This document shows, one piece after another, positions 619 through 32,367 of a DNA stretch of 64,000 bases. The translations under genes and the position numbers were made by a program. Under the pieces are notes generated by a model, which had not been told where the DNA came from, made no database searches, and was given only the letters and a program-made list of their open reading frames with translations. The DNA comes from an uncultured Planctomycetaceae bacterium (GTDB taxonomy: Bacteria > Planctomycetota > UBA1135 > GCA-002686595): positions 81,673 through 145,672 of the forward strand of contig CAZQAT010000001.1 in the NCBI GenBank assembly GCA_964591315.1, read 5' to 3'. Each line of letters opens with the position of its first letter. The first letter of the stretch is position 1.

Positions 619-1233
619 ATGCAATGCCCCCAACACCCGACCCATCACAGACCGACGAATCACCAGCCGCCCGAGAGACCGGGCGCTCCGGACCACCCCC
701 GTCCCCGACGGGGCTTCGACAGCCCCGAGGACTTCAATCGACGGGTCGAGCCCCACCTCCCGCGCATGTTCCAGGTGGCGCGCGCGGTCCTCTCGAGCGA
801 TGACCTCGCCTGGGACGCAGTCCAGGAGACCCTGCTGCGCATCTGGGTCGCGGGCTGGCTCCCCGACGAGCCCACCGGCGCTCTGGTGAAGCTCGTCCAG
901 GCGTCCAGCTTGCATCAGCGGCGCTGCGCATCGAGGCGCCGGCGCCACGAGCTGCTCTCGGAGCCCCAGGGCAAGGTCTGTTGCGAGGAGGATCCGCTCG
1001 CCTTCCTGGAGCAGAACGAGCGGGCGGCGGCCGTGCGTGCGGCCGTCCAGACGATGCCCCTCGACTTCCGCCGGGTCCTGGAGAAGTTCGAGTTCGACGG
1101 CGCGAGCTACCAGGAGATCGCGGCGGAGCTCGCGCTCCCGCTCGGGACCGTTCGCTCCCGCCTCAGCCGGGCGCGCGGGCTGGTCCGCAAGCAACTCCTG
1201 CGGGGGGGAGGGGAGAGCGTTGCGGCCTCCTGA
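619..1233 (+). CDS. ECF-type RNA polymerase sigma-70 family factor
   Basis: The region 2 signature is DLAWDAVQETLLRIW. The region 4 HTH is FEFDGASYQEIAAELALPLGTVRSRLSRARGLVRKQL. An unusual His/Pro-rich N-terminal extension of about 30 aa precedes them. Confidence 0.85.
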   Translation: MQCPQHPTHHRPTNHQPPERPGAPDHPRPRRGFDSPEDFNRRVEPHLPRMFQVARAVLSSDDLAWDAVQETLLRIWVAGWLPDEPTGALVKLVQASSLHQRRCASRRRRHELLSEPQGKVCCEEDPLAFLEQNERAAAVRAAVQTMPLDFRRVLEKFEFDGASYQEIAAELALPLGTVRSRLSRARGLVRKQLLRGGGESVAAS

Positions 1234-1440: not shown

Positions 1441-1474
1441 GAGCCGGGGAGCCGTGACGGCGGCTCCCCGGCTC
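1441..1474 (+). terminator. Perfect 14-bp GC-rich inverted repeat (GAGCCGGGGAGCCG / CGGCTCCCCGGCTC, 6-nt loop) in the sigma-to-secreted-protein spacer
   Basis: The inverted repeat was read directly. It is followed by ACTTTCATCC, a weak T-tract. It could be a terminator or a 5'-UTR structure. Confidence 0.35.
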
Positions 1475-1630
1475 ACTTTCATCCGACCGATCACCTCATG
1501 GAGAGGCCGTCCGTGGGTTTCGCTGTGGAGCTGGGAACCCGGAGCGAGCGATGGGCATTCCCCGAGTGACCGCGGGGCGATGGTGCCACCGCGCTGGCTT
1601 GAACCAGGTCCGCTTCTCACTCATAGACCA

Positions 1631-3199
1631 ATGAACCTGCTCCGTTCGGCGAGTTTCGCCACCGTCATCACGCCTCTGCTCCTGAGCCCCAGCGCCTTTG
1701 CCCTCGACGAAGAGGAGGGCCTCTTTCCGATCTTCATCGTCGACGCGACCCACGACCAGGTGTACCGGGGGATCGACGGTGACGAGGACCGCACCTACAA
1801 CCAGGCCGGGGAGATGACCGTCTTCTACGACGACACCCTCGGGTCCCTGGACCTTGACACCCCGACCTCGCTCCACACGTCGCCGAACGACTTCCTCTTC
1901 ATCAGTGACAGCTCCCACCAGCGGATCGTCACGATGGAGGACCTGAACGACGACGGGACCTGCCACGACACCGGTGAGCACTTCGTCTTCGCGGACTCCA
2001 CCAACGCCTCCGGTGTCCCGCTGCCGAACCTGCGGAACGTCTACGTCCGCAACCTCGGGGAGCTGTGGGCCACGAGCTCGAACGCCGACATCACGGAGAG
2101 CGACGCGATCCTCTTCTTCAACGACGCGAACAACGACGGCGACGCGAATGACGCCGGCGAGGTCACGGAGTACTACATGATCGCGCCCGGCGGCGCCGTG
2201 AACGACAGCGACCCGACTGCGGTGATCCAGCACCCGGACGGGCTGGCCTACTACGTCGAGAACGGCAGCTCGGGCGCCATCGCGAAGGGCGTGTACTGCC
2301 TCGAGGACCTGAACAACAACGGCGTCATCGACGCGCCGCTCGAGGTCAGCCCCTACTACCTGCCCACGGGAACGGGCATGGAGCTGGTCGCCCTGGACGT
2401 GGACGAGGCGGGCGTGGTCTATCTCCTGGACAACGGCCTGGACCGGATCTTCCGCCTCGAGGACTCCAACATGGACGGCGTGATCACCCCGGGTAGCGAG
2501 GACTGCGTCTACTACACCGCCCCCTCGAGCCAGGACTCCCCCGACCTCTCCGTGTCGCTCGACGGTCACGAGCTGATGGCCCTGGAGATCGCCTCCCTGG
2601 ACCAGATGTGGCTGATGGAGGACGAGGACGACGACTGCAGCATCGTCCATGGCATCGAGCGCGCTGAGGCCTACAACGACGTCGGCGGGAGCGTCTCCTG
2701 GGGTGAGACCACGGGCATCGACTGGGACTTCCACGGCCACGAGGTGGTTGGCACCCCCTTCTGCTTCGCCGTGCGGGACCGCTGCCCCTGCTCCAACGAC
2801 TTCGGCTTCTCCGGCTGCGCCAACTCCACCGGTGGCGGCGCCATCCTCGAGGGCGAGGGGACCGCTTCGGTCTCCCTCGACGACCTGGCCTTCCACGCCG
2901 TCGGGATGCCCGCGGGCGTCTTCGCCGTCCTGTTCCAGGGCGACGCGATGGTCAACGGTGGTCTCGGCAACCCCTTCTTCGATGGCCTCTTCTGCGTGGA
3001 TACGAACATCCAGCGCCTGGGTGCCGAGCAGGTCAGCGCCGGCGGCGACGCCGAGTGGGGCCCGGGGCTGCTGGCCGGCCTGGGTGAGTGGTCCGTCGGT
3101 GAGACCAAGAACTTCCAGGTCTGGTACCGCGACGTGACCGGCCCCTGCGGCTCGGGCGCCAACACCACGAACGGGGTGAGCATCACCTTCGAGCAGTAG
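1631..3199 (+). CDS. Secreted protein with repeated Dx[DN]xDG calcium-loop-like motifs and a Cys-rich C-terminal domain
   Basis: I placed the start at the internal ATG because it gives a signal peptide, MNLLRSASFATVITPLLLSPSAFA. The repeats are DLNDDG, NDANNDGDANDAGE, DLNNNGVID and DSNMDGVITPG. The C-terminus reads RCPCSNDFGFSGCANSTGGGA...FQVWYRDVTGPCGSG. Confidence 0.7.
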   Translation: MNLLRSASFATVITPLLLSPSAFALDEEEGLFPIFIVDATHDQVYRGIDGDEDRTYNQAGEMTVFYDDTLGSLDLDTPTSLHTSPNDFLFISDSSHQRIVTMEDLNDDGTCHDTGEHFVFADSTNASGVPLPNLRNVYVRNLGELWATSSNADITESDAILFFNDANNDGDANDAGEVTEYYMIAPGGAVNDSDPTAVIQHPDGLAYYVENGSSGAIAKGVYCLEDLNNNGVIDAPLEVSPYYLPTGTGMELVALDVDEAGVVYLLDNGLDRIFRLEDSNMDGVITPGSEDCVYYTAPSSQDSPDLSVSLDGHELMALEIASLDQMWLMEDEDDDCSIVHGIERAEAYNDVGGSVSWGETTGIDWDFHGHEVVGTPFCFAVRDRCPCSNDFGFSGCANSTGGGAILEGEGTASVSLDDLAFHAVGMPAGVFAVLFQGDAMVNGGLGNPFFDGLFCVDTNIQRLGAEQVSAGGDAEWGPGLLAGLGEWSVGETKNFQVWYRDVTGPCGSGANTTNGVSITFEQ

Positions 3200-3221
3200 A
3201 GCTCTAGCAGGGCTCCAGTGC

Positions 3222-3253
3222 GGGGGGGTCGGGCGTTGGGGCCCGGTCCCCCC
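3222..3253. terminator. Imperfect GC-rich hairpin between convergent genes
   Basis: A GGGGGG..GGGC / GCCC..CCCCCC stem with one mismatch and one bulge, followed by ATTT. It lies between the stop at 3197-3199 (+) and the stop at 3266-3268 (-). Confidence 0.25.
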
Positions 3254-3265
3254 ATTTCGTGCCGC

Positions 3266-4306
3266 TCAGTCCGCTGGCGTCAGCTCCTCGCGGCAGAACT
3301 CCACGGCCTCGACCAGGCTCTTGGCCTCGTGGACACCGGTCACTGCGAGGCGTGCGATGCCCTCGCCTTCGAGGCCGAGCTCGAGGGTCTGACCGAGCTC
3401 GATGGCCTCGCTGCGGGAGATCTCGAGCTCGTCCTCCGCGACCAGCTCGCCGTGCGCGTCGAGGGCCCGCACCTGGAAGAGGATCAGGCGGTCGTTGAGG
3501 CCGGGGATCTGGTGTCCCGCCCGGTTGGCGACGCGCAAGACGACGCCGTCCTCGGTGCGCCGCGCGGAGAGCCCGAAGGCCTGGCGCAGGAAGCCCGGGT
3601 CGCGCGGGGTCTGCAGGGCGTGGCTGCGGCCCTTGCGGGGGGCGTACTCGGTCTTGCCTTCGGGGTCGTTGGCGATCGGCCGCTCGACCGGCGCCATGTG
3701 ACAGCCCACGCAGGAGAAGCCCCGCTCGCCGAGCTCCTCGTCGTCGAAGTCGCGGCCGATGCCGATCACCGGGCCCACGCTGCGAGAGTGGCAGGAGAGG
3801 CACAGCTCGTTGGAGCCGAGCTCGCTGAAGAGCTCGTCCTTCAAGCTGCCGTGGGCTTGCTGTTCCTCGCCCCAGGGGCCGTGGATCTCCCCGCCGGGGC
3901 CCAGGTGGCAGGTCAGGCAGTCGACCCCCCAGTGCACGTTCTCCGCGCGGGTCTTGGGCCGCTTCGTGATCCCCGCCACGAGCAAGGGCTCCGGGGCGTG
4001 GCAGGAGGTGCACTTGGACTTCTTGCGGATCTTGGCCAGCTCCTCCTGGTAGAGCTCCTCGTTCCAGGCCTGGCCGTGGCGGGTGCCGGCCCACTCGAGG
4101 GCGATCGTCCGGTGGCACTCCGCGCAGCTCTGCTCCTCCCAGGCGGGGTTGAGCTCGGTGGCCGGGCTCTCCGCGGGGGCGGGGGTCTCCAGCTTCCAGG
4201 CACGGCCCGGGAGCTCCTCCTCGGCCGCCCGTTGGGCGATGGCCACTCCGATGGCGCCCAGGGCGATGGCCAGACCGGGGGCGAGGCGAACGAAGGTGGG
4301 GGGCAC
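3266..4306 (-). CDS. Pentaheme c-type cytochrome, secreted or membrane-anchored
   Basis: There are five CXXCH motifs (CAECH, CTSCH, CLTCH, CLSCH, CVGCH). The N-terminal hydrophobic signal is MPPTFVRLAPGLAIALGAIGVAIAQ. Confidence 0.85.
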   Translation of the reverse strand: MPPTFVRLAPGLAIALGAIGVAIAQRAAEEELPGRAWKLETPAPAESPATELNPAWEEQSCAECHRTIALEWAGTRHGQAWNEELYQEELAKIRKKSKCTSCHAPEPLLVAGITKRPKTRAENVHWGVDCLTCHLGPGGEIHGPWGEEQQAHGSLKDELFSELGSNELCLSCHSRSVGPVIGIGRDFDDEELGERGFSCVGCHMAPVERPIANDPEGKTEYAPRKGRSHALQTPRDPGFLRQAFGLSARRTEDGVVLRVANRAGHQIPGLNDRLILFQVRALDAHGELVAEDELEISRSEAIELGQTLELGLEGEGIARLAVTGVHEAKSLVEAVEFCREELTPAD

Positions 4307-4325
4307 GGGCCGCCTGGGGCGCTCC

Positions 4326-4499
4326 CTACTTGTCGAAGATGTTCGTCTCGCTCGGGGAGAGCCGCTCGTCGACGCGCTCGACCGTCAGGTCGAGCTTGGA
4401 GAAGTCCAAGCCCTTGGTCTTGTCCGTGACCGTCTTCGTGGACTCGTCGCGGCGCTTCGAGGTCGGGTCCTGGGGAGTCTTGGTGTCGTCTTTCTTCAT
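4326..4499 (-). CDS. Small hydrophilic 57-aa protein; candidate precursor peptide of the adjacent radical SAM pair
   Basis: Translated by hand; not in the supplied track. ATG at 4499-4497, TAG at 4328-4326. Sequence: MKKDDTKTPQDPTSKRRDESTKTVTDKTKGLDFSKLDLTVERVDERLSPSETNIFDK. A GGAGGAG Shine-Dalgarno ends 4 nt before the ATG. GC3 bias is high. It lies 150 nt downstream of rSAM-1 and 19 nt upstream of the cytochrome gene, on the same strand. Confidence 0.5.
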   Translation of the reverse strand: MKKDDTKTPQDPTSKRRDESTKTVTDKTKGLDFSKLDLTVERVDERLSPSETNIFDK

Positions 4500-4650
4500 G
4501 ATCTCCTCCGAGTCGTAGACGCCGATTGGGCCACCTGAGTTCCGAGGGAGCTGGGGCTGATTGCGGCGCGCACCGACCCGGAACCCTCCGAGGGCCTGAG
4601 TCTAGCGGTCGCTGTACCCAGTTCCAGGGTCGCCCAGAGGTGGGAATTGG

Positions 4651-6930
4651 TCAAGGGGTCCAGCCCTGCGAGGCGGTTGCGAGGGGTCTGAGGACCCCCA
4701 GGCGGTGCAGCTCGCCCGCGAAGGTGTCCAGGCGGCCGAGGGCCTCGCGGCCGGCGGGCATGGCGGTGTCGATGGAGTCGCGCAGCTCCGCGAGGGAGCC
4801 GGCGTCCCGCAGGGCCTCCAGCGCCCGCAGGCCGTCGGGGCGCAGCTCGATGAACTCCGCCTCCTGGCCGGCGTAGATCAGGACGCTCTCGCGCGGCTCG
4901 AGGGCCGCCAGCTCGCGGGCCGCGATACGCGCGGCCTCGGCGTCGAAGGTGCCGGTCTGGTTCTCCGGCCGCGCGGCCAGGGCCAGGCGCGAGCGCAGGG
5001 TGCGGCGCGTCTCGCCGTGGCTGAAGGGGACCTCGATCACCTCCAGGTCGTCTCCCACGCCCAGGTCACCCCGGGCCCCGCGGGCGGTGCGGGCCTCTTC
5101 GCGCGCGCGGCAGGCGGCGCTGAACTCCGAGGGTGTGGCGCCCGCCGCCAGGTGAAGGAAGTAGTGGCTCTTCTGCATGAAGTAGAGCACGTTCTCCCCG
5201 TTGAAGATCGGCAGACAGGCCCGCAGGCGTGCCCGGGCCTCACCATGGAGGACCGCGGTCTCCTCCTGGCTCATGCCGGACTCCACGCTGTAGTCGTGGT
5301 ACAGCTGCAGGTCCGCCTCGGGGTCGTCGTGAATCGTGATCCCGTAGCGCTCGGGACAGCGGAAGACCTGGGCCACCTCGTCGATGTGGAAGGTCTGCAG
5401 GCTGACCTCCTGGATCGTGCCCGCGTGCTCCTCGATGAAGCGCAGGGTGGCCTCTGCTTCCTCCCGCGTCTCGGTGGGGAAACCGACCATCGCGTACCAG
5501 GTGACGCTGATGCCCGCGGCGTGGCAGGCCTCGGAGACGAAGGTCACGTCTTCCTTGGTCTGGCCCTTCTCCATCATCTGCAGGATGCGGGGCGTGACCG
5601 ACTCGAAGCCGAAGAGGAGCTTGCGGCAGCCGGCGTCGAACAGGAGTTGAGCCCCCCCGTCGTCGTAGGAGCGCCGCTCGACCTTCGCGTCGCAGGACCA
5701 GGTGATCCCGGCTCCGCGCTCGATCAGCTCCCGGGGCAGCTCGCGCAGGGTCGCCGGCGGCATGCAGTCGGTGATGAAGTAGAAGCGGGAGCGCCCGTGT
5801 CGCTCCTTGAGGGCCAGGATGTCGTCCACCATCTGGGTGATGCGCCGGGTGCGGAAGCCCGGGCCGATGACGGTGGGGAGGGTGCAGAAGGTGCACTCGG
5901 AGTAGTAGCAGCCCCGGTTGATGTCGTAGGGGATCACCACGTCCGGCGAGAAGTAGAGGTCCCAGGGCAGGTCCTCGAAGTCCGGGGTGGGCGCCTCGTC
6001 CAGGGAGACCGGGTGGCCGCGCAGGTTCGTCACGGGGACGGCTTCCGGTCCCGAGCGGTCGAGCCAGAAGAGGGAGCCGATCTCCGTCAGACCGCCCCCG
6101 TCCTCCGAGGGGGCGCCGTCCCGCAGGGTCCGGGCCAGGAGCTCGATCGGCCGCTCCCCCTCGTGCTCGACGATCGAGTCCAGGCAGGCGCCGATGCCCG
6201 GGGCGGCCATCAGCTTCTCGCCGATGTAGGCCAGGAAGCCGCCGCCCATGGTCACGTGGCAGTCGGGCAGCTCCTCCTTGATCATGCGACCCAGGCTCAG
6301 GGCCGGGATCAGCTGGCTGCCGTAGATCACGCTCATGCCCACCAGCCGGGGGCGGCGCGCCACCAGCCGCGGCAGCACCTGCGTTCGGAAGTAGGCGAGG
6401 TAGGGGTTCTCGGCCTCGTCCGTCGTCGCCGCCAGGACCTCCTCGGAGCGGTCGATGGCGTAGCGCATCGTGAAGTTGTGGGGCGTCAACGCCGTCGGGA
6501 AGTGGGCGGCGGAGACCAGGCGCAGGCCGTTGTAGATCGTGCGCAGCGCGGGCAGGTAGCGCTGCTCGTCGTAGAAGTCCTCGCCGCGCAGGACGGCCTT
6601 GGCGTCCTGGATGCGCTCGATCACCTGGCGCGCGCTGACCCGGGTCTCCACGGCGGCCCGGTAGGCGGCCATCTCATCGAAGGGCAGGCGGTCGCGTCCG
6701 CCGTAGCTCTCGACGTCGAGTCGCTCCTGGGCCCGCAGGGCCGCTCGCTCGAGGTAGGCGGGGGTCAGGAAGTGCTCGTAGGACTCGACCGAGAGGTCGA
6801 GCAGCTCCACGTCCTCGAAGCCTGCCCCCTGCAGCCAGGACTTCAGGCAGGGCAGGGCCAGGTAGGGCTGCGTGAAGTGCGCCTGGGGTGGGAAGATCAG
6901 GGTGATCGGGAAGTCGTCGCGCGAGCTCAT
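4651..6930 (-). CDS. B12-binding-domain radical SAM protein (class B-like) with a long C-terminal extension
   Basis: The N-terminal Rossmann-like B12-binding region reads ITLIFPP...LVGMSVIYGS...VTMGGG. The radical SAM cluster motif is RGCYYSECTFC (CX4CX2C). The extension ends in a wHTH-like segment, LRALEALRDAGSLAELRD...FAGELHRLGVL. The start overlaps the upstream stop (ATGA). Confidence 0.85.
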   Translation of the reverse strand: MSSRDDFPITLIFPPQAHFTQPYLALPCLKSWLQGAGFEDVELLDLSVESYEHFLTPAYLERAALRAQERLDVESYGGRDRLPFDEMAAYRAAVETRVSARQVIERIQDAKAVLRGEDFYDEQRYLPALRTIYNGLRLVSAAHFPTALTPHNFTMRYAIDRSEEVLAATTDEAENPYLAYFRTQVLPRLVARRPRLVGMSVIYGSQLIPALSLGRMIKEELPDCHVTMGGGFLAYIGEKLMAAPGIGACLDSIVEHEGERPIELLARTLRDGAPSEDGGGLTEIGSLFWLDRSGPEAVPVTNLRGHPVSLDEAPTPDFEDLPWDLYFSPDVVIPYDINRGCYYSECTFCTLPTVIGPGFRTRRITQMVDDILALKERHGRSRFYFITDCMPPATLRELPRELIERGAGITWSCDAKVERRSYDDGGAQLLFDAGCRKLLFGFESVTPRILQMMEKGQTKEDVTFVSEACHAAGISVTWYAMVGFPTETREEAEATLRFIEEHAGTIQEVSLQTFHIDEVAQVFRCPERYGITIHDDPEADLQLYHDYSVESGMSQEETAVLHGEARARLRACLPIFNGENVLYFMQKSHYFLHLAAGATPSEFSAACRAREEARTARGARGDLGVGDDLEVIEVPFSHGETRRTLRSRLALAARPENQTGTFDAEAARIAARELAALEPRESVLIYAGQEAEFIELRPDGLRALEALRDAGSLAELRDSIDTAMPAGREALGRLDTFAGELHRLGVLRPLATASQGWTP

Positions 6931-8831
6931 GAGGGGCGGGAGGAGTCGTGGGGGGCCGGGCGGCTCTCTACGAGCCCAGCCCGGTGCAGTGAGTCGAGGG
7001 CACGTGAGATTCCGGGGTGCTCGACCTCGAGCTCCTCCGGGGTGCGGGGCTCCCGCAGGAGCTCCAGCACGGCGGCGGCGCCCGGGGCGAGCCTGTCACT
7101 GCGCACGCCGCTGGGCGTGGGCGTGACCGCGAAGGCCGTCGGGCAGGGGCTGCGATCGAGCTGCGAGGCGCCCCGCGCCAGCTCTTCCACCGTGCGTGCC
7201 AGGTCGTGCTCGAGGTGGACCACACGGGCCCGAGAGACGATGGTGCCCGGGCGCCCGTCGCGCGGGGGTCCGCCCCCGAGCTCGCCCAGCTCGGCCGCCG
7301 CGGCCTCCCAGGCGAGGGCGTCGCGCACGAGCCCGTCGTCCACCTGGGCGGCGAACCGGGGGAAGTCGAGGCCCGAGTCGCTCCAGGCCCTGTACAGCTC
7401 GTGCTGGCCACGGCCGGTGGCGCGGCGCACGAGCTCCCAGCTGCGCGGGTAGCTCGCCAGCACCGTGGGCAGCTCGTTGGCGAGGCGCGCCAGGTACAGC
7501 CAGCGCTGCTCGTCGCCCGCCGGCAGGGCCCAGGAGCTGAACAGGTCCGGGTGCTCGGCGATCAGGGCCAGCTCCGGCCCGGTCTCCCCGGCGCCGAAGG
7601 CCATGTCCGGCGGCACGCCGTCGATCGGGCGCGCGCCCTCGCCGTGGGTCTCCGCCAGGCCGCAGCCCGGCTGGGGGTTGGGCAGGTGCAGGGAGACGAT
7701 CGCATCCACCCGCAGGCTGGCCTGGACCACGAGGTCGAGGGACGCCTCGAGCTCCGCCTCGCCCTCACCCGGCAGGCCGAGGATCAGGGAGAGGATCGGA
7801 CGTATACCCGCCCGGCCCAGGCGCTCGACGGTGCCGAGCACGTCCAGGTCCTCGGGCTGGCCCTTGTGCGCCGCCTCGCGCACGGAGTGGGCGGCGGACT
7901 CCACCCCGAGCAGCACGCGGTAGCAGCCGGCGGCGGCCATGCTCTCGATCAGCTCAGGGTCGAGGTGGTCGACCCGCGCGCGGCACTCCCAGGGGCGCAC
8001 GCCGGCCTCGACCAGGGCCGCGCAGAACTCGAGGGCGTGCTTGCGGTCGGCGCCGAAGATGTCGTGGCAGAGGTAGGCGTTCTTCGCGCCGGGGATCCCC
8101 TCGAGGGCGTGCACCTCCTCCACGAGCCGCGCGGCCGGCAGGACGCGCGAGCGGCGTGACCAGTAGCGGCCGATGGTGCAGAAGCTGCAGTCGTAGACGC
8201 AGCCCCGGCCCGAATCCAGGGGCACCAGGCCATCGGGCTCGCCGGTGATGTTCTTGTAGTCCTCGAGGGGCGGGAGCAGGTGCCAGGCGTAGGCGGGCAG
8301 TGCGCCCAGGTCCGCCAGGGGAGACCGCGCTGCCTCGCGCACCACGGCGCCCTGCTCGTCGCGCCAGAAGACGCCCGCGACGCCCCGTGCATCGCGGCCC
8401 GCGCCCCAGGCCTCGATCAGCTCCGGCAGGGTCTCCTCCGCCTCCCCGTCGACCACCGCGTCGATCCAGGGGAAGCGCTCGAGCAGGGCCGCGGCGGTGC
8501 CGGTCGTCCCGGGGCCGCCGAGCACCAGGCGCGCAGTCGGTTGCAGCTCCCGCAGGCGCCGGGCGATCAGGAGCGCCGCGGGCAAGGTCGCGCCCATGAC
8601 CGACAGGCCGATCAGGTCGAAGCTGCCGCGCTTGTGGACCAGGCGCGCGGCGCTCTCGCACAGGAGGCTGCCGCTCGCCAGCTCACCCCGGGCGGAGCGG
8701 AAGGCCAGGTCCTCCAGCTCCACCGCCAGGCTGCGCCGCTCGAGCTCCGCGCCCAGGCGCAGGAGGCCGGGGGGCGGCATCGAGTAGCCGAAGGTGTCTC
8801 GGAACGGGGCTTGGACCAGGAGGGTGCGCAT
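6927..8831 (-). CDS. B12-binding-domain radical SAM protein with a C-terminal wHTH-like extension
   Basis: I placed the start at MRTLLVQAPF. The B12-domain region reads FDLIGLSVMG...LVLGGPG. The canonical motif is GRGCVYDCSFC (CX3CX2C). The C-terminus reads AAAVLELLREPRTPEELEVEHPGISRALDSLHRAGLVE. Confidence 0.85.
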   Translation of the reverse strand: MRTLLVQAPFRDTFGYSMPPPGLLRLGAELERRSLAVELEDLAFRSARGELASGSLLCESAARLVHKRGSFDLIGLSVMGATLPAALLIARRLRELQPTARLVLGGPGTTGTAAALLERFPWIDAVVDGEAEETLPELIEAWGAGRDARGVAGVFWRDEQGAVVREAARSPLADLGALPAYAWHLLPPLEDYKNITGEPDGLVPLDSGRGCVYDCSFCTIGRYWSRRSRVLPAARLVEEVHALEGIPGAKNAYLCHDIFGADRKHALEFCAALVEAGVRPWECRARVDHLDPELIESMAAAGCYRVLLGVESAAHSVREAAHKGQPEDLDVLGTVERLGRAGIRPILSLILGLPGEGEAELEASLDLVVQASLRVDAIVSLHLPNPQPGCGLAETHGEGARPIDGVPPDMAFGAGETGPELALIAEHPDLFSSWALPAGDEQRWLYLARLANELPTVLASYPRSWELVRRATGRGQHELYRAWSDSGLDFPRFAAQVDDGLVRDALAWEAAAAELGELGGGPPRDGRPGTIVSRARVVHLEHDLARTVEELARGASQLDRSPCPTAFAVTPTPSGVRSDRLAPGAAAVLELLREPRTPEELEVEHPGISRALDSLHRAGLVESRPAPHDSSRPS

Positions 8832-8990
8832 GGGGGCACATGATCCGGAACGGTGGCGCGGCCGCCAAGGCGCGTCTTTTGGAAGCTTCGGCCGAATCTT
8901 AGAGTGGCGGGTCGTAATACGCCCTTCGCCACACCCTCTCTCCAAGGGCGGCCTCGGCCGCCGGGTGCCCACTCCCACGGAGCCAACTCG

Positions 8991-11900
8991 ATGTCCCATC
9001 GTCAATCGGTCAGCCTCTTCGTCGCCCTGTGCCTCCTCGCCGCCAGCACCTGCACCTACTTCGCCTTCTTCGAGGGCGACGACAGCGAGGTGGAGTCCTC
9101 CCTGCAGAAGGGGCAGACCTCGGCCGAGACGGTCCAGGCGCCTTCGACCGACCTGGTGGACCAGGAGGCCGCGCCGGAGGTCGCTCCGGAGGTCGGGGAG
9201 CTTCAGCCCCGGGAGCAGGAGGACGAGCGCGTCGACGCCACCAGCCTGGAGGAGCCGGTCGAGGACGAGCAGGAGCCGGCCGAGCTGACCTACGTCACCG
9301 GCCGCGTGGCCCTGGGCTTCGACCTGCCGGCGGACGAGGTCCTCTGGGTGGCCAGCGTGGACCGCGAGCGGGGAGCCAGGTCCCTCTACGGCAACAGGGG
9401 CGTGGTGGACCCGATCTGGTCCCCGGGCGAGGAGCACCATGGCCTGATCAGCCACGCCCGGGTGGAGCCGGACGGCAGCTTCCGGGTCGGCCTGTCCGCG
9501 GACGCCGACGAGGGCTTCCTGGCCCTCACGGGGCGCTACGTCATCTCCAAGCGCACGACCCGCGTGAGCACCGCCGAGGGCTCACCCGAGCCTGTACTGA
9601 CGGGGGAGCTCGGCTCCTGGATCACCGGTCAGCTGCGCGTCCCCAGCGGGCTGGCGGAGGACGTCCCCCTCGGGGGCATCGAGATGGAGCTGGGCGTCGA
9701 CATCACGGCGGCCTTCAACCCCATGGAGATGCCCGGGGTGGCCTACGACATGGAGGTCGAGACCGACGCCGAGGGGCGCTTCGAGTTTCGCGGCGTCTCG
9801 AGCGTGGTCAGCCACGGGATCATCGTCCACCACGAAGACCTGGCGGAGACCCTGATCCTGGGCCTGCGGCCGGAGCCGGGCGAGCACCGCGAGCTCAACG
9901 TGCGCCTGCAGGAGGGCGCGACCCTGAAGGGCATGGTGGTGGACGAGAGCGGCGCCGGCGTGCCGGGTGCGGAGCTCGAGGTGACCCTGCGCGGCACCCT
10001 GGGCGACTCCATCGGGGACATGCGCAAGGCCAGCACCGACGCCGAGGGCAACTTCGTCCTCGAGCACGTGGTCACCGGCCATCAGATCGAGATCCACGCG
10101 GAGGTCGAGGGCATGCGCCCGGGGGAGCTGAAGCTCGAGGACAAGCTCCGGGACGGACAGCTGCTGGAGGGCCTGCGGATCGAGCTGCGGGAGGGCCTCA
10201 GCATCGCGGGCCGCTTGCTCTACCCCGACGGCCAGCCCGTCTCGGAGGGGGAGGTCCGCGTCGTGAACGACCTGACCAGCTCGGACCTGGCCATGATGGG
10301 GGCCCGGGCCGCAGCCATGCGTCGCATGGAGGTGGAGAGCGACGAGGAGGGCCGCTTCGAGGTCAAGGGCCTGGACGAGGGGACCTACATGCTCGCGGTC
10401 AAGCACGAGAACGACGAGGGGGCTCACGAGGGCAAGTGGCGCGCCCGCCAGGGCGGCGTGACCGGCGGGACCACGGGACTCGTGCTGGAGCTCGAGGGCC
10501 TGACGCCCGTGGCCGGCTTCGTGACCACCGAGTCCGAGCGTGAGCTCGAGACCTTCACGGTGCAGATGACCCTCCAGGGCTCCGGGGGCATGATGGGCGT
10601 GGGGGCCGAGCGCCTGCGGGAGGAGTTCGATTACGACGCCGAGGGCGGCTTCGAGAAGGAGAACGTGCCCCCCGGGGTGTGGGACGTGACAGTCGTGGCG
10701 GCCGGCTTCGCCCGCTCCGAGACCCAGGAGGTCACGGTTCCTCAGGGTGAGGGGCTGCCCCTGCCCGAGTTCGCCCTCGTCCCGGCGGCCGGGGTCCAGG
10801 GCACGGTCTACGACACGGCCAACCAGCCCGTCGCCGGCGCCAAGGTGACCCTGGAGCTGGACCTCGCCTCACGCATCAACGTGGCCTTCAGCGGAGAGCA
10901 GCCCTCGGCGCTCTCGGACCACGAGGGTCGATTCACTCTCGGTGACCTCGACCCGGGCTCCCTCTCGGTGGTCGCTGGCCTCGACGGCTTCGCGGACAGC
11001 GAGCCCTTCGCCGTGGACCTCGAGCCGGGTCAGCTGGCCACGGACGTGAACCTGGTGCTGCGCCTGGGGGGCACGGTCTACGGGCAGGTGCTGGGCGCGG
11101 AGGGCAAGCCGGCCGTCGGCCGCATGGTCATCGTCCAGCGGTTGCCCAGCTACGCCTCTCAGCACATGGGCTCGAGCGACTCCGACGGCGAGTTCAGCTT
11201 CGAGCACCTCGAGCCCGGCCAGTGGCAGGTGGTGTCGATGCCGAACATGATGACGGGCGAGCTCGATGTGGGGTCCGGCGACGGCATGGGGGAGATGCTC
11301 AGCGACCTGAAGATGGACATGGTCGACGTCGTCGACGGGGGCGAGCACGAGGTCATCCTGGGCCAGCCGCCGGAGGACCCTGTCCAGGTCCTGGGCAGCG
11401 TGACCCACGACGGTGGGGGCATCCCCGGCGCGCTCGTGTCGTTCATCTCCGAGAAGTCCGAGGGGATCGGGGACCTCAAGATGACCACGACCAACGAGGA
11501 AGGAAACTTCTCCGTGCAGCTCGACAACCGGGGCCACTACATCGTCAATGTCCAGAACAACGTGGGCACCGGCCGGCAGAACAACCTGGAGTTCCAGGAG
11601 CGCATCCCTGAAGAGGGGGAGACTCATCGGCTCGAGCTGAAGCTGCCCAGGGCCGCCATCGCGGGCAAGGTGATCGGCCTGGACGGCAAGCCCGCGCCGA
11701 ACTGCCGCGTCTCCCTCAACGTGGACGGGGGCATCCCGTACGGCTCCCTGCTCGGAGGTCACTTCGCCGAGCTCGCCACGGACGCGGAGGGTCGCTATCA
11801 GTTCGACTACGTGCGCCCCGGGAGCTACACCGTCAGCGCCGGCGGAGCGACCATGGCGGGGGTGTTCGGTAACGACAGCCTGGGGGGCCGCGTGGTGCGC

Positions 11901-12506
11901 GACGGCATCCAGGTGGCCGAGGATCAGCTGGTCAAGGGGGTCGACTTCCGCCTGGAGGAGCCTGGCTCCTTGGGCGGTGTCGTCTACGGCCTCGACGGGC
12001 AGCCCGTGTCGGGGGCGGCGGTCTTCGTGCGCGACGCTGCAGGGCGCCGGCTGGAGCGTTTCTCGATGATCAACACCGACAACGCCGGCCGCTACGAGTA
12101 CCACGGGCTGGGCAAGGGGGAGTACAGCGTCGCGGCCCGCAAGGGGGGCTCCGTCAGCGAGGGCAGTGGGCTGGTCAGCGTGCGCGCCGGGGAGACCTCC
12201 AAGGCGGACGTCACCCTGGGGGACGGGACCGTCTTCCTGATCAGTGTCATCGACCGTACAGGCGCCACCGTCGACGCCCGCGTGCAGGTCATCAACGAGG
12301 CCGGCCACGAGATTGGGGGCATGCTGTCCCTGAACGAGATGATGAACTACATGGGCGGCGGCTTCTCGCACGACGAGCAGCGCGTGGGGCCCGTGCCCCC
12401 CGGCAAGTACCGGGTCGAGGTGACCCTGGAAGACGGGCGCTCCAAGCGCAAGAGCGTGCGCGCCTCGGGACAGTCGGAGCGCAAGCTGAAGATCCGGATC
12501 GACTAG
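8991..12506 (+). CDS. Large secreted protein made of repeated carboxypeptidase-regulatory-like (prealbumin-fold) domains
   Basis: The internal ATG gives the signal/anchor MSHRQSVSLFVALCLLAASTC. Many repeats follow the pattern G.V.D..G.PV.GA.V, for example GMVVDESGAGVPGAELEV, GTVYDTANQPVAGAKVTLE and GVVYGLDGQPVSGAAVFVRD. Confidence 0.8.
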   Translation: MSHRQSVSLFVALCLLAASTCTYFAFFEGDDSEVESSLQKGQTSAETVQAPSTDLVDQEAAPEVAPEVGELQPREQEDERVDATSLEEPVEDEQEPAELTYVTGRVALGFDLPADEVLWVASVDRERGARSLYGNRGVVDPIWSPGEEHHGLISHARVEPDGSFRVGLSADADEGFLALTGRYVISKRTTRVSTAEGSPEPVLTGELGSWITGQLRVPSGLAEDVPLGGIEMELGVDITAAFNPMEMPGVAYDMEVETDAEGRFEFRGVSSVVSHGIIVHHEDLAETLILGLRPEPGEHRELNVRLQEGATLKGMVVDESGAGVPGAELEVTLRGTLGDSIGDMRKASTDAEGNFVLEHVVTGHQIEIHAEVEGMRPGELKLEDKLRDGQLLEGLRIELREGLSIAGRLLYPDGQPVSEGEVRVVNDLTSSDLAMMGARAAAMRRMEVESDEEGRFEVKGLDEGTYMLAVKHENDEGAHEGKWRARQGGVTGGTTGLVLELEGLTPVAGFVTTESERELETFTVQMTLQGSGGMMGVGAERLREEFDYDAEGGFEKENVPPGVWDVTVVAAGFARSETQEVTVPQGEGLPLPEFALVPAAGVQGTVYDTANQPVAGAKVTLELDLASRINVAFSGEQPSALSDHEGRFTLGDLDPGSLSVVAGLDGFADSEPFAVDLEPGQLATDVNLVLRLGGTVYGQVLGAEGKPAVGRMVIVQRLPSYASQHMGSSDSDGEFSFEHLEPGQWQVVSMPNMMTGELDVGSGDGMGEMLSDLKMDMVDVVDGGEHEVILGQPPEDPVQVLGSVTHDGGGIPGALVSFISEKSEGIGDLKMTTTNEEGNFSVQLDNRGHYIVNVQNNVGTGRQNNLEFQERIPEEGETHRLELKLPRAAIAGKVIGLDGKPAPNCRVSLNVDGGIPYGSLLGGHFAELATDAEGRYQFDYVRPGSYTVSAGGATMAGVFGNDSLGGRVVRDGIQVAEDQLVKGVDFRLEEPGSLGGVVYGLDGQPVSGAAVFVRDAAGRRLERFSMINTDNAGRYEYHGLGKGEYSVAARKGGSVSEGSGLVSVRAGETSKADVTLGDGTVFLISVIDRTGATVDARVQVINEAGHEIGGMLSLNEMMNYMGGGFSHDEQRVGPVPPGKYRVEVTLEDGRSKRKSVRASGQSERKLKIRID

Positions 12507-13421: not shown

Positions 13422-14476
13422 CGGCGGGGGATCGTGCGCAGCGCCAGGCAGGCGGCCAGCACCCAACATAGACCACCGGCCCAGAGCTTCCAGCCCGCCC
13501 GCGCGCGGATCAGGGCCCAGGCCTCGGCCCGCGAGGGGCTGCTGCGGGCGCGGAACACCAGGCTGCGGTCCTGATAGACGCGCCCTCCCCTGGTCATGCC
13601 CAGGAGCGGGGGGGCCGGGGGCGTGCCGCCGTGGAAGGTCTTGAGGGACGGGCCGTACTCGAAGCCCACCAGGCGCGCCTCCTGGTCCACGGTCAGGCGG
13701 AAGCCCAGGTCCTTCCAGCGGCTGTCGGCGATGGGCTCGAACTGGAAGTAGGCGTAGCCGCCGCGGGTCGACTGCTGCACGTCGAGCAGGGCCACCCGCA
13801 GGGGCGGGTCCTGGGCCAGGTCGGCCCCCTCGTCGAAGACCTCCAGCCTGGCGCGGCCCCCGCGCACCGCCTCGAAGGCGAAGGCCACCGCCGCGAGGTG
13901 GGGGTGGGGCACGCGGCCCCAGGTGGGGCGCGAGCCGGGCGCAATCGAGTGGTCGAGCAGCTTCCCCTCGAAGACCGTGCCCGGGAGGATGCGATCGCCC
14001 CAGGGGGCGTCCGTGCCCGGCTGACCGTGGTAGCGGACCCAGGCCGAGTAGGGGCTCTGGACTCGCTCTCCGGGGACATCGAGCTCGAACCACAGCTCGC
14101 GGCCGGCGGAGTCGTCCAGGGGCTCGAAGGCAAAGGTCGTGAAGGCTCCACCGGCGGCCAGCTCGGCGGGTCCCAGCCGCGCGCGGCGCAGCAGCTCGCC
14201 GTGCGGGCCGTCCGCCCGCAGGACGAGTTCGAGCTCCGCCTCCGCAGCGGGGCCGAGGGGCGTCAGGGCCACCTCGATGCTCCGCAGGCCGTTCCAGCGG
14301 CAGCGGAAGCCCTGACCGACGGGGCTCTCGTCGAGCAGGCGCCCGGTCTGGGTGCGTCGGGGCGCCGTGCGCACCTCCACGTCGAGAACCTCGTCCAGGG
14401 CCGTGTGCAAGGGCCACAGCCCGAACAGGAGGCACAGGACGGAGCCCAGCAAGCAGGCGGAGAGGTTGCGCCTCAC
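13418..14476 (-). CDS. Hypothetical protein with N- and C-terminal TM segments and an internally duplicated module
   Basis: The GTG start overlaps the upstream stop (GTGA). The duplicated motif is FTTFAFEPLDDSAGRELWFELDV and YAYFQFEPIADSRWKDLGFRLTV. The terminal hydrophobic segments are LSACLLGSVLCLLFGLW and LWAGGLCWVLAACLAL. Confidence 0.55.
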   Translation of the reverse strand: MRRNLSACLLGSVLCLLFGLWPLHTALDEVLDVEVRTAPRRTQTGRLLDESPVGQGFRCRWNGLRSIEVALTPLGPAAEAELELVLRADGPHGELLRRARLGPAELAAGGAFTTFAFEPLDDSAGRELWFELDVPGERVQSPYSAWVRYHGQPGTDAPWGDRILPGTVFEGKLLDHSIAPGSRPTWGRVPHPHLAAVAFAFEAVRGGRARLEVFDEGADLAQDPPLRVALLDVQQSTRGGYAYFQFEPIADSRWKDLGFRLTVDQEARLVGFEYGPSLKTFHGGTPPAPPLLGMTRGGRVYQDRSLVFRARSSPSRAEAWALIRARAGWKLWAGGLCWVLAACLALRTIPRR

Positions 14477-15885
14477 GAGCCCCACACTCCGTACTGGTTC
14501 CAGACGAGGCCCGACCCGAGGAAGTAGGCGTCGAAGGCCAGCAGGGCGGCGACCACCAGCCCCACCGCCGCCCCGCGCCAGGCCCGCGGCAGGGGGAAGT
14601 AGAGCCCGCAACCGACCAGGGCCGCGCAGGCGGGCAGGACCGGGATCGCGTAGCGCCCGGCGGCCTGGCCGCGCAGGAAGACGAGCAGGAGCTGGGCGGC
14701 CACCGCGCTCAGGCAGAGCAGGAGCAGCCCGCGCCGCACCTCGTCCGTCCGGCGCAGCAGCACGAACAGCAGGCCCAGCCCGGAGAGGAGCAGGGTCCAC
14801 TCGACGGCTCGATGGACCGCCCCGGGCAGGTCTCGCGAGTACCAGTTGAAGGCGCCGATCGCCGTCCGCAGGAACTCCCCGCGGAACTCGGGCTGCACCG
14901 CGCGCTGCAGGCGCAGGAGGAAGTTGTCGAGGCGCAGGGGGATGGCCGGGTTGTTCGTGAACTGGTAGGCCACCGGGACCGCCAGCACGAGGCCGACGAC
15001 CGCGACCCACAGCCAGGGCCGGGCTCGCCCGGGAAGGAGCCTCCGGCCACGCCGCAGCCGCCACAGCACGGCCAGCCCGAGGGGCACCAGCACGCCCACC
15101 GCGGTGGTCTTGACCGCCAGTCCGCCCACGGCCAGCAAGAGGGCCAGCATCACCCGCCGGCGCGTGAAGCCCTCGGCAGCCAGGTCCAGGGCCACCACCA
15201 GGGTCCAGGCCGTCAGGACCTTGACCAGCACGTCGTTGTTCACCACCGCCGCCTGGCGGGCGTGCATCGGCCACCAGGCGACGAGCAGGCCCACCAGGAC
15301 CGCCCAGCGTCCGTCCGCCGCGATCCGCAGTGCCAGGGCGTGGGCCGCGAGCACCACCGCCAGGTAGCACAAGAGGGCCAGGCCGCGCACGACCCACATC
15401 TCCTGGAGCACGTCGCCGTCCCCGAGCAGACGCGCCAGGGTCCCGGCGAGCACGTAGTAGGCCGGCGGCTGGTGGGTGGCGGTGAAGTAGGGGGAGACCT
15501 GGTCGAAGCTCTCGGCCTGGCCGCCCCAGGCGGCCCAGTCCACTCGCTCCCAGAAGCCGTGGGCGCGCATGGAGTCGAGGATCGCGGTCTGGGTGCCCAC
15601 CAGCTCCTCGCGCTCGAGGCCGCCGAGCTCGCGCAGGACCTGCACCTGGGAGGGGGAGTACTCGGACAGGTCCTCGATCGAGATGGCGCGCCCGCCCCAG
15701 GGCATGTGCCCCTCCGCCACGTAGTGCACGTACTCCACGTGCCAGGGCTCGTCCTCACCCATCCAGGGCGGGAGCACGAACAGGTAGGCCAGCCCGTGAA
15801 GCAGAGCCGCGAGCAGGAGCAGCCAGGGCAGTCCCCCCCGCCCCTTGGCCACGGCGCTTGGTGCTTCGGGGGTCGGCTCGGTCAT
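14473..15885 (-). CDS. Polytopic membrane protein, GT-C/DUF2142-like putative glycosyltransferase
   Basis: It has many predicted TM helices. The acidic loop after TM1, PPWMGEDEPWHVEY, is typical of the ArnT/PMT-like GT-C fold. Confidence 0.55.
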   Translation of the reverse strand: MTEPTPEAPSAVAKGRGGLPWLLLLAALLHGLAYLFVLPPWMGEDEPWHVEYVHYVAEGHMPWGGRAISIEDLSEYSPSQVQVLRELGGLEREELVGTQTAILDSMRAHGFWERVDWAAWGGQAESFDQVSPYFTATHQPPAYYVLAGTLARLLGDGDVLQEMWVVRGLALLCYLAVVLAAHALALRIAADGRWAVLVGLLVAWWPMHARQAAVVNNDVLVKVLTAWTLVVALDLAAEGFTRRRVMLALLLAVGGLAVKTTAVGVLVPLGLAVLWRLRRGRRLLPGRARPWLWVAVVGLVLAVPVAYQFTNNPAIPLRLDNFLLRLQRAVQPEFRGEFLRTAIGAFNWYSRDLPGAVHRAVEWTLLLSGLGLLFVLLRRTDEVRRGLLLLCLSAVAAQLLLVFLRGQAAGRYAIPVLPACAALVGCGLYFPLPRAWRGAAVGLVVAALLAFDAYFLGSGLVWNQYGVWGS

Positions 15886-15972: not shown

Positions 15973-17145
15973 TCACACGTGGTGCTTCAGGCTCTCCCGG
16001 AGGGTCGGGTCCTGCACCGGCACCAGGGGGGCCCCGGAGAGGTTGCGCAGGGTCTGCCACAGGAACAGGCTGAGCAGGCCGACGACGGGGCCGATCTCCC
16101 ACAGCCCGAGCACGGGACCCTCCCGCATCAAGGCCGGCTCCACCAGCATGTACAGGTTGAGGGCCTGCCCCACGAGCATCACCCAGGCGATGCGCACCAG
16201 GGCCGTCTCGCTGCGACGCATGGCCCGGGGCATCAGGGCGAAGAAGGGGATCATCCAGTTGAGCAGCAGGTTGGCCGCCATCAGGTGCTTCCAGGCCCCC
16301 TGGCCCCGCAGCACGTAGTAGGGCGTCTCCTCGGGCATGTCCGTGTACCAGATCAGCATCCACTGGCAGTACCAGATGTAGCCCCAGAAGAGGGCCAGGC
16401 CGATGCCGATCCTGCCCAGATCGTCCAGGTGGTCCATACGGATCACGCCCCGCAGGGGACCGCGGCGCAGGTAGACCGCCAGCAGGATGCAGACCGCCAG
16501 GCCCGAGGTGCCGACCCCCGAGAGGGTCACCAGGCCGTAGATCGTGCTGAACCAGTGGGGCTCGATCGACTTCAGCCAGTCGATGCTCGCCAGCGAGAAG
16601 GTGACCGCGAAGATCGGCATGAAGAGCGCCGCCCACTTGACGCGCTCGCGGGAGTGGCGCCGGTCGCCGTCCAGGTCCTGGGCGTGAGAGGTGCGCACCA
16701 GCCTGCGGCAGATCCAGATCCAGAGGCTGAAGAAGAGCACCAGCCGCAGCAGGAAGAAGCCGGAGTTGAGGTACGGCGCCTTCGCCTGGAGGATCGGGTC
16801 CGCGATCACGGCCGAGTCGTGTGACCACTCGTAGAGGGAGTGCACGCCGCCCGCCAGGGCCACGCCGAACAGGGCCGCCACCGGCAGGGTGCCGCTCATG
16901 GCCTCGGGGATGCGCCGCAGCACCGTCGCCCAGCGGGCGTTGGAGAGGGTCAGGACCGAGATGAACAGCCCGCCCGAGAGGGCCAGGCCGACGAAGAAGG
17001 TGAAGCCGATCAGGTAGCCGGCCCAGGCGCGCTCGGGGGCCACGAAGAGCCCCAGGAGAAAGGCGAGCCCGCCGACGATGGCGGCGGCCCGCAGGCCCAG
17101 CATCGTGTCCCGCGGCGGGACGAAGGTCAGGGGGTGGGGGATCAT
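15973..17145 (-). CDS. actF: Alternative Complex III subunit ActF (NrfD-like membrane subunit 2)
   Basis: A polytopic membrane protein in the last position of the act cluster. Its start overlaps the actE stop (ATGA). Confidence 0.8.
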   Translation of the reverse strand: MIPHPLTFVPPRDTMLGLRAAAIVGGLAFLLGLFVAPERAWAGYLIGFTFFVGLALSGGLFISVLTLSNARWATVLRRIPEAMSGTLPVAALFGVALAGGVHSLYEWSHDSAVIADPILQAKAPYLNSGFFLLRLVLFFSLWIWICRRLVRTSHAQDLDGDRRHSRERVKWAALFMPIFAVTFSLASIDWLKSIEPHWFSTIYGLVTLSGVGTSGLAVCILLAVYLRRGPLRGVIRMDHLDDLGRIGIGLALFWGYIWYCQWMLIWYTDMPEETPYYVLRGQGAWKHLMAANLLLNWMIPFFALMPRAMRRSETALVRIAWVMLVGQALNLYMLVEPALMREGPVLGLWEIGPVVGLLSLFLWQTLRNLSGAPLVPVQDPTLRESLKHHV

Positions 17146-22669: not shown

Positions 22670-22671
22670 GG

Positions 22672-23340: not shown

Positions 23341-23352
23341 GGGCGCGTCACC

Positions 23353-24960: not shown

Positions 24961-25001
24961 GGCGCGGTGGGGAGGGAGGGCGTGGTGGTTCCGCGGGAGG
25001 G

Positions 25002-26269: not shown

Positions 26270-26272
26270 GGC

Positions 26273-27760: not shown

Positions 27761-27783
27761 GGATCAGGTCCTTCTGGCTGGGG

Positions 27784-31407: not shown

Positions 31408-31423
31408 GAGGCTCGTAGCAGGC

Positions 31424-32278: not shown

Positions 32279-32310
32279 CTCGGCGTGGGAGGGGAGGTCT
32301 GGACCCCCTT

Positions 32311-32327
32311 GTGCAAGGGGTGTGCCG
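32311..32327 (-). promoter_or_regulatory. Sigma-54 (-24/-12) promoter upstream of the narC-like gene
   Basis: The minus strand reads cGGCACaccccTTGCAc, with GG and GC in exact consensus spacing (TGGCAC-N5-TTGCW). The -12 element ends 34 nt before the GTG start. Confidence 0.6.
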
Positions 32328-32367
32328 CGGCGAGATCGCCAGTGGCGGTGCCCTCAGCGGGGGCGGC

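Follow-up and report, generated by a model that had tools for sequence, protein, structure and literature searches.

A candidate precursor peptide with an invariant C-terminus, encoded beside two cobalamin-binding radical SAM enzymes in Planctomycetota

The stretch of DNA analysed here, hereafter the window, covers 64,000 nucleotides of contig CAZQAT010000001.1 from an uncultured Planctomycetaceae bacterium, and it carries on its minus strand, at positions 4326..4499, a 57-codon open reading frame (ORF) closed by a TAG stop codon. Its sequence, translation, homologues and pattern of synonymous substitution are consistent with a model in which this ORF probably encodes the precursor peptide of a previously undescribed pathway, widespread in Planctomycetota, of the kind that yields peptides made on the ribosome and modified after translation (RiPPs). 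It is similarly likely that the peptide is the substrate of two radical S-adenosylmethionine (SAM) enzymes encoded next to it, here called rSAM1 and rSAM2. The chemistry is proposed more tentatively; by analogy with the nearest characterized relatives it could be C-methylation of unactivated side-chain carbons near the C-terminus, a reading whose likelihood falls somewhat short of even. The putative precursor family is new, as are the two subfamilies of class-B radical SAM enzymes with fused, predicted recognition domains and the unusually invariant putative core at the C-terminus. The general logic is already familiar, in that the system would work like a radical SAM RiPP pathway dependent on a RiPP recognition element (RRE), closest to the step catalysed by ApyD on ApyA.

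The peptide gene and its family

The start codon of the ORF lies at 4497-4499 and its stop codon at 4326-4328. A first-pass annotation had described an unlisted 57-codon frame preceded by GGAGGAG, rich in G and C at third codon positions (GC3) and encoding a hydrophilic peptide without Cys; the translation obtained here, on the minus strand, is identical, and gives a product of 57 residues that is rich in Lys, Asp, Thr and Glu and contains no Cys. The Shine-Dalgarno-like GGAGGAG (4503..4509, minus strand) stands 3 nt ahead of the ATG and supports the start codon in the window genome; it is not a trait of the whole family, such a motif being found in only 38 of 81 homologous genes. By codon position, the GC content of the ORF is 0.48/0.38/0.97 in a region of about 70% GC, the first 14 kb of the window hold 81 ORFs of at least 40 residues, and an antisense frame at 4330-4518 has a GC3 of 0.97, equal to that of the peptide ORF. 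Taken alone, the length, GC3 and Shine-Dalgarno motif of the peptide ORF are within chance expectation, and the ORF is regarded as real because it is conserved across genomes, not because of features of its own sequence. The antisense ORFs at 4330-4518 and 4083-4538, on the plus strand, were judged to be by-products of GC-rich coding DNA. No promoter-like sites were found around the peptide ORF, and the one terminator-like site, on the plus strand inside the ORF, occurs at the level expected from shuffled sequence.

The exact peptide of the window is present on 19 public contigs, and it has no Pfam or NCBIfam match. A search for homologous small ORFs sharing the same C-terminal tail, which the first-pass annotation had recommended, proved productive: 27 homologues (E 2e-26 to 6e-8), mostly of 57 residues, were recovered from 5.8 billion proteins, and among 1.84 billion cluster representatives a profile search picked out 63 at E <=1e-3. 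Pattern scans of genomes and metagenomes led to the fetching of 85 loci, which together with the loci from protein look-up gave 81 non-redundant gene copies, encoding peptides of 51-80 residues. The N-terminal half of the peptide is hydrophilic, hypervariable and essentially unalignable, whereas the last 27 or so residues are highly conserved. Among 116 distinct 28-residue tails, with positions numbered back from the C-terminus, all 116 hold the consensus ending R-[ILMV]-x-P-x-E-T-N-[VI]-F and 114 finish in D-K-stop. Seven positions are invariant (L-20, R-12, P-9, E-7, T-6, N-5 and F-3), D-2 and K-1 each occur in 115 of the 116, and every copy of the gene terminates directly past its final residue.

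Conservation is thus concentrated in two elements, and they are the central box and the C-terminal tail that the first-pass annotation had singled out as significant. The box occupies residues 31-41 of the window peptide (LDFSKLDLTVE; 4377..4409, minus strand) and is the putative recognition sequence for domains of the RRE type; the tail, which is the putative core and site of modification, follows as residues 42-57 (RVDERLSPSETNIFDK; 4329..4376, minus strand). The D-F-x-K-L-D-L box of that annotation stands in a modified form, since what the family retains is L-D-hydrophobic-x-x-L-D-L, or in full L-D-hydrophobic-x-x-L-D-L-x-[VI]-E. It is not an F-(N/D)-L-D motif, which it had been taken to resemble weakly, as the hydrophobic position is F in 53 of the 116 tails and L in 38, with V or I also found. 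Other box residues are held more firmly, with L-27 in 95 tails, D-26 in 105, L-22 in 106, D-21 in 114 and E-17 in 109.

The mode of conservation is that of a protein. Across the last 28 codons, for which 78 distinct nucleotide versions were compared, the numbers of variable columns at the first, second and third codon positions are 19, 11 and 28, the invariant tail codons all show synonymous variation, and the serines at -10 and -8 are encoded by both AGY and TCN codons; a subset of close relatives likewise shows the pattern of a coding sequence. As judged by sequence comparison, this substitution pattern and the switch between serine codon families show that the peptide is translated and that purifying selection on it is strong. 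The reading frame is intact in 81 of the 81 copies and conservation resides at the amino-acid level, in place of the frameshifts, stops or nucleotide-only conservation that the first-pass annotation had named as evidence that would speak to the contrary.

Database and literature searches place the family apart from those already described. A scan of the 63 members against NCBIfam gave scattered, chance-level matches only, which were treated as noise and among which the pearlin carrier TmoA (E 0.014) and the ammosamide leader (E 0.044) each appear once; a profile search of the PDB with the peptide returned nothing meaningful. Two large proteins, P0198 (1554 residues) and P0207 (667 residues), gave repeated matches to the last 10-23 or so profile positions, in 18 and 6 stretches, respectively, and are probably unrelated repeat proteins. 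The strings ETNVFDK, ETNIFDK and TNVFDK occur in no searchable paper, and no paper was found that joins Planctomycetota, RiPP, radical SAM and cobalamin. The literature on the mining of B12-dependent radical SAM RiPPs yielded only papers on ApyD, clavusporin and the ocean microbiome.

The two radical SAM enzymes and their C-terminal domains

In the window, the order along the minus strand is rSAM1, rSAM2, a gap of 151 nt, the peptide gene, a gap of 19 nt and a cytochrome gene. Both enzymes are B12-binding radical SAM proteins, rSAM1 of 634 residues with the start MRTLLVQ (6927..8831, minus strand) and rSAM2 of 759 residues (4651..6930, minus strand), and the stop codon of the former overlaps the start of the latter by 4 nt. 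An rSAM2 homologue lies upstream of the peptide gene, on the same strand, in 43 of the 45 loci with at least 2.6 kb of upstream flank, and it ends less than 500 nt from the peptide start in 39 loci; rSAM1 is present in 36 of the 38 loci with sufficient flank. From the rSAM2 stop codon to the peptide ATG the median distance is 15 nt, and many copies overlap. The same gene order recurs in the cultured planctomycete Engelhardtia mirabilis (CP036287.1) and in distant metagenome-assembled genomes, where rSAM2 is only 55-60% identical. The E. mirabilis peptide, which ends ...LDLENLDLTVEQVDERISPRETNVFDK, is annotated as "hypothetical protein" (Pla133_35680; QDU68471.1, WP_419191655.1). As read from gene order, comparison across about 80 loci shows operon linkage of the peptide with the radical SAM pair, and the peptide gene is the only conserved gene of the cassette that is a candidate for encoding the substrate. 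Genes that stand between rSAM2 and the peptide in four loci (L026, L028, L053 and L086) look like unrelated insertions, some on the opposite strand, and are uninformative about the pathway. A called gene of 57 residues between rSAM2 and the true peptide in L005 (9831-10004) has no similarity to the family and was judged spurious.

By domain content, rSAM1 and rSAM2 are assigned to the class-B, or cobalamin-binding, radical SAM enzymes, as both contain a radical SAM core (PF04055; 61.8 bits in rSAM1 and 60.5 bits in rSAM2) and an N-terminal B12-binding domain (PF02310; 46.0 bits and 34.0 bits, the latter against a cut-off of 32.1) above Pfam thresholds. They are distant paralogues, with 28% identity over the catalytic region. 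The best NCBIfam model for rSAM1 is ApyD (NF050148; E 1.6e-55, 188.7 bits), which matches its catalytic part; profile positions 24-429 of 645 are aligned, and the score compares with an equivalog cut-off of 750. For rSAM2 the best model is TIGR03975, the RiPP maturation radical SAM C-methyltransferase (E 1.5e-32, 112.9 bits), whose cut-off of 281.85 bits lies above the scores of both rSAM2 and rSAM1 (84.7 bits). By these scores both enzymes fall outside every named family. Among solved structures, those closest in sequence are AprD4, TokK, TsrM and CysS, and the cluster motif of rSAM1, GCVYDCSFC, is a canonical CX3CX2C. Database names for the enzymes are the automatic labels BchE cyclase, YgiQ and RimO.

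Beyond the catalytic regions, each enzyme extends into a C-terminal domain for which structural models are informative. AlphaFold models built on input alignments of 41-44 homologues were confident and reached a predicted local distance difference test (pLDDT) of 93 for rSAM1 residues 430-634 and of 84 for rSAM2 residues 560-759. The last 205 residues of rSAM1 (6930-7544, minus strand) are modelled as a helical bundle followed by a beta/alpha winged-helix unit, an arrangement as in TglI, and the model matches the TglHI structure 8hi7_A with a Foldseek E of 1.5e-4, a probability of 1.00 and a query TM-score (TMq) of 0.61 over 220 columns. TglI consists of a helical N-terminal domain and an RRE C-terminal domain and recruits the scaffold peptide TglA, and its partner TglH is a TIM barrel (PMC10880893). 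In rSAM2, the C-terminal 90 or so residues (about 4654-4920, minus strand) are modelled as a PqqD-like winged helix, and the best meaningful fold matches are leader-bound RREs of lasso-peptide systems (TbiB1, 6jx3_B), with a probability of up to 0.93 and a TM-score of 0.57-0.60 for TbiB1. As independent support from sequence, the Pfam PqqD model matches 10 of 26 homologous rSAM2 C-terminal segments, with a best E of 2.7e-5, and the C-terminal domains of the two enzymes align weakly with one another over a strand-helix-helix-helix part (hhalign E 5.5e-4). Sequence-only detection of RREs failed on the window's own two domains, giving MarR-type winged-helix matches only for rSAM1 and none for rSAM2, and PDB sequence searches with the C-terminal domains gave no RRE signal; the signal emerged only from structure prediction and from the scan over many homologues. 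On these models both enzymes look like carriers of an RRE-type module of their own, a prediction that fits with the first-pass proposal that binding of the peptide to the C-terminal domains of the two proteins be tested.

Proposed pathway and its relation to known systems

These data allow a model of maturation to be drawn. The model proposes that the peptide is made from one operon with the two class-B radical SAM enzymes, and that its disordered, hypervariable N-terminal half may serve as a spacer. The L-D-hydrophobic-x-x-L-D-L-x-[VI]-E box would be bound by the winged-helix RRE-type domain of each enzyme, and such binding would place the tail, [DE]-[ED]-R-[IL]-x-P-x-E-T-N-[VI]-F-D-K-COOH, into the B12- and SAM-containing active sites. 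Each enzyme may then install a modification of its own, either at two sites or in two ways. Methylation is proposed from the nearest characterized relatives, ApyD and the PoyC-type C-methyltransferases. The roles of the LDxxxLDL box as recognition sequence and of the tail as core are putative, and the binding, the position and nature of any modification and what becomes of the modified peptide are all inferred.

The closest parallel is with ApyD of Burkholderia thailandensis, an RRE-containing, B12-dependent radical SAM enzyme that methylates the C-beta of the penultimate Tyr of ApyA (PMC11117315). ApyD, rSAM1 and rSAM2 are all class-B radical SAM enzymes fused to a peptide-recognition domain, predicted in the case of rSAM1 and rSAM2, and just as the target of ApyD is the last residue but one in a conserved C-terminal motif, the invariant part of the present family is at the extreme C-terminus. 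However, ApyA ends in Y-L-Y-D whereas the present family ends in F-D-K, the ApyD pathway uses one B12-dependent radical SAM enzyme where there are two here, the host here belongs to the Planctomycetota, and none of the other aminopyruvatide genes, for ApyH (an oxidative enzyme that depends on multinuclear non-haem iron, MNIO), for the partner ApyI, for the P450 ApyO and for a SAM methyltransferase, was seen in the window or the related loci. A second parallel is with TglI of the 3-thiaglutamate, or pearlin, pathway, whose two-domain architecture is also predicted for the last 205 residues of rSAM1 and which recruits a scaffold peptide on the C-terminal residue of which the chemistry takes place (PMC10880893). 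The TglI-like module is here fused to a radical SAM enzyme, whereas TglI itself is the partner of a multinuclear iron (DUF692) enzyme; TglI has no detectable sequence similarity to the rSAM1 C-terminal domain, and the PEARL/LanB-like aminoacyl-tRNA ligase of the pearlin pathway has no counterpart here.

Other systems share parts of the design. Proteusin-type C-methyltransferases (TIGR03975 rSAM_ocin_1, PoyB/PoyC-like) combine a B12-binding domain with a radical SAM core, as does rSAM2, and act on ribosomal peptides. Unlike that family, rSAM2 has a CX4CX2C motif and a C-terminal PqqD-like domain, and the precursor here lacks the nitrile-hydratase-like or Nif11-like leader of proteusins. The PqqA/PqqD/PqqE and MftA/MftB/MftC systems resemble the present one in having a short precursor, a C-terminal part that is invariant over a wide lineage and a radical SAM enzyme, and further in a PqqD-type recognition domain, an absence of exporter and immunity genes and a neighbourhood of redox genes. 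However, the radical SAM enzymes of the pyrroloquinoline quinone (PQQ) and mycofactocin pathways are SPASM-domain proteins without a B12 domain, and rSAM1 and rSAM2 match no SPASM family; the residues modified in those pathways are Glu/Tyr or Val-Tyr, whereas the tail here has no Tyr, and no peptidase is conserved. With the FNLD-box leaders of class I lanthipeptides, the likeness is an acidic Leu/Asp-rich box upstream of the modified region, which is generic to RiPP leaders.

Several observations weigh against the proposed pathway and are best considered together. Two loci, L082 (7880-9398) and L073 (3050-4210), hold the peptide followed by a multihaem cytochrome, and no radical SAM gene is present in the upstream flank fetched for them (8 kb and 3 kb, respectively). 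Genes for a peptidase, an exporter or immunity are not conserved around the cassette in the 39 long loci, and the window proteins that were scanned included none; a leader peptidase or exporter gene is common though not obligatory in RiPP clusters. Unlike most RiPPs, the family varies at its N-terminus and is most invariant in its putative core. At the level of the enzymes, the scores against the ApyD and TIGR03975 models fall far below the curated cut-offs, and the chemistry is therefore not confidently transferable; the rSAM2 motif, RGCYYSECTFC near residue 340, is a non-canonical CX4CX2C, a spacing that is conserved in 44 of 44 aligned homologues. As to the recognition domains, statistical support for the fold matches of the rSAM2 model is weak (E 0.2-2), and we infer that the matched chain A of 8hi7 is TglI and not TglH from its topology, not from the chain label.

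Neighbouring genes, rival explanations and significance

The genes around the cassette bear on what the peptide may be for. Its downstream neighbour, which starts 19 nt past the peptide stop codon, encodes a pentahaem c-type cytochrome of 346 residues (3266..4306, minus strand) with an N-terminal membrane anchor or signal, five CxxCH motifs and matches to PF13435 and PF09699; of 57 loci, 27 have a homologue of it downstream of the peptide gene on the same strand, which makes the cytochrome a frequent, not universal, companion. In L082, the genes upstream of the peptide encode an Rrf2-like regulator and a molybdopterin oxidoreductase in place of a radical SAM enzyme. In several loci (L004, 19325-20189; L023, 10754-11926; L045, 13282-13857; L060, 13092-14537; L079, 10622-15184), a VWA/HEAT protein of about 540 residues and a nuo (complex I) operon lie just downstream of the cassette, a context that suggests a stable, housekeeping-like chromosomal position and not a mobile gene cluster. 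The proteins scanned in the window include a module like alternative complex III (ACIII), nitrate reductase genes, transporters and housekeeping genes. The ACIII-like or polysulfide-reductase-like module (15973-23347, minus strand) contains an NrfD membrane subunit (18244-19734) and a 1232-residue Fe4S4/molybdopterin-type subunit (19649-23347), and the nitrate reductase region (23353-32353, minus strand) contains a major facilitator superfamily (MFS) transporter, NarH-like (26273-27763) and NarG-like (27784-31494) proteins and a dihaem cytochrome c (31424-32353); the window as a whole is rich in respiratory genes.

Two very large, secreted-type proteins with CarboxypepD_reg repeats are encoded in the window at 8853-12506 (plus strand) and 38189-41299 (minus strand). 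The former diverges from rSAM1 and is kept at that position only in close relatives. It was rejected as a member of the cassette: its counterpart in E. mirabilis (629 residues) is non-homologous, and ORF clustering had merged the two via antisense ORFs. An extracytoplasmic function (ECF)-type sigma factor (619-1233, plus strand) is followed by a protein of 581 residues with no Pfam or NCBIfam match (1454-3199, plus strand), and both genes are convergent with the cytochrome gene; related loci do not share this side. In the E. mirabilis locus (L015), a FecCD permease and a Peripla_BP_2 protein, of an ATP-binding cassette uptake system of the B12/siderophore type, are encoded at 1-1330, some 5 kb upstream of the B12-dependent enzymes, and a group II intron reverse transcriptase (RVT_1 and GIIM) lies at 14147-15520, about 4 kb downstream.

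An alternate scenario would take the invariant C-terminus as the basis of a small molecule or cofactor, assembled on the peptide, excised and put to use in the cell's own redox or respiratory metabolism. This scenario shares the steps of recognition and radical SAM modification with the favoured pathway and differs in its end product, which would not be a secreted bioactive peptide. Precedents are PQQ, made from PqqA, mycofactocin, made from the C-terminus of MftA, and 3-thiaglutamate, made on TglA. In keeping with such a role, the core is invariant over a broad lineage, occurs in a single copy per locus and has a fixed C-terminus, exporter and immunity genes are not conserved nearby, and the setting is housekeeping-like, with the multihaem cytochrome c in 27 of 57 loci and immediately downstream in the window, the nuo operon and VWA/HEAT protein downstream in several loci and the ACIII-like module and nitrate reductase genes elsewhere in the window. 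The resemblance of the rSAM1 C-terminal domain to TglI of a scaffold-peptide pathway, and the action of ApyD at the C-terminal end of its own substrate, point the same way. However, no conserved peptidase lies nearby to release a product, the tail is without Tyr, Trp and Cys, the residues used by known peptide-derived redox cofactors, and the enzymes are of the B12 type and not the SPASM-type radical SAM enzymes of PQQ and mycofactocin. Further, roughly half of the loci lack the cytochrome, the respiratory neighbours vary with lineage, and this context may therefore be coincidental synteny. On balance this scenario is unlikely, and it is at least as doubtful, in its specific form, that the invariant ...P-x-E-T-N-V/I-F-D-K is the building block of a new peptide-derived cofactor or metabolite for the respiratory or redox metabolism of Planctomycetota, although such a role would account for conservation that is vertical and housekeeping-like, for the missing export and immunity genes and for the recurrence of cytochrome c and respiratory neighbours.

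It is also possible, though improbable, that the peptide is a stand-alone small protein, such as an accessory or assembly factor for the cytochrome or a regulator, and that its adjacency to the radical SAM genes reflects shared regulation only. The 19-nt gap to the cytochrome gene in the window would fit this explanation, as would the two loci that keep peptide and cytochrome with no radical SAM gene in the fetched flank, and the tail is conserved in the manner of a protein-protein interaction motif. However, the radical SAM pair is a far steadier neighbour of the peptide (43 of 45 loci) than is the cytochrome (27 of 57), both enzymes carry predicted domains of a type known to bind precursor peptides, and the cassette conserves no other gene that could supply their substrate. 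In addition, the peptide lacks a signal sequence, whereas an anchor or signal is present at the N-terminus of the cytochrome; the haem-binding sites of c-type cytochromes imply an extracytoplasmic location.

Two further explanations are refuted. That the ORF arose by chance in GC-rich DNA, with conservation owed to an untranslated region or structured RNA between rSAM2 and the cytochrome gene, would suit the abundance of chance ORFs of similar size and the equal GC3 of the antisense frame, but every copy keeps the frame open to the same final residue, third codon positions vary in 28 of 28 columns against 11 of 28 for second positions, serines switch codon family, no Rfam match rises above noise across 3000-10000, and the upstream 156-nt region folds no better than shuffled sequence (z = -0.46). 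Membership of the class I lanthipeptides, to which the first-pass annotation had loosely linked the box, fares no better, as the resemblance of LDFSKLDL to F-(N/D)-L-D is loose and RiPP leaders in general often carry LD-rich boxes, whereas no family member contains Cys, no dehydratase or cyclase (LanB/LanC) was found among the window proteins scanned or in the related loci, none of the 63 members was matched by a lanthipeptide-leader model at E up to 1, and over half of the tails have L, V or I in place of the F in the box.

If the proposed pathway is correct, the present family would be of the RiPP type, new and apparently common in Planctomycetota, the chemistry of whose natural products has been little explored. 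Its architecture would be unusual, with two distinct class-B radical SAM enzymes, each with a fused peptide-recognition domain of its own, one of them a TglI-like module known so far as the partner of a multinuclear iron enzyme, and with a core that has stayed constant across a broad span of evolution. The system escapes current annotation, as the peptide is unannotated in the window and "hypothetical" elsewhere, and the names given to the enzymes are misleading. The cultured carrier Engelhardtia mirabilis makes the system testable, and a tryptic peptide ...ETNVFDK would report modification. As B12-dependent radical SAM enzymes carry out difficult reactions on unactivated carbons, both enzymes are candidates for new peptide chemistry.

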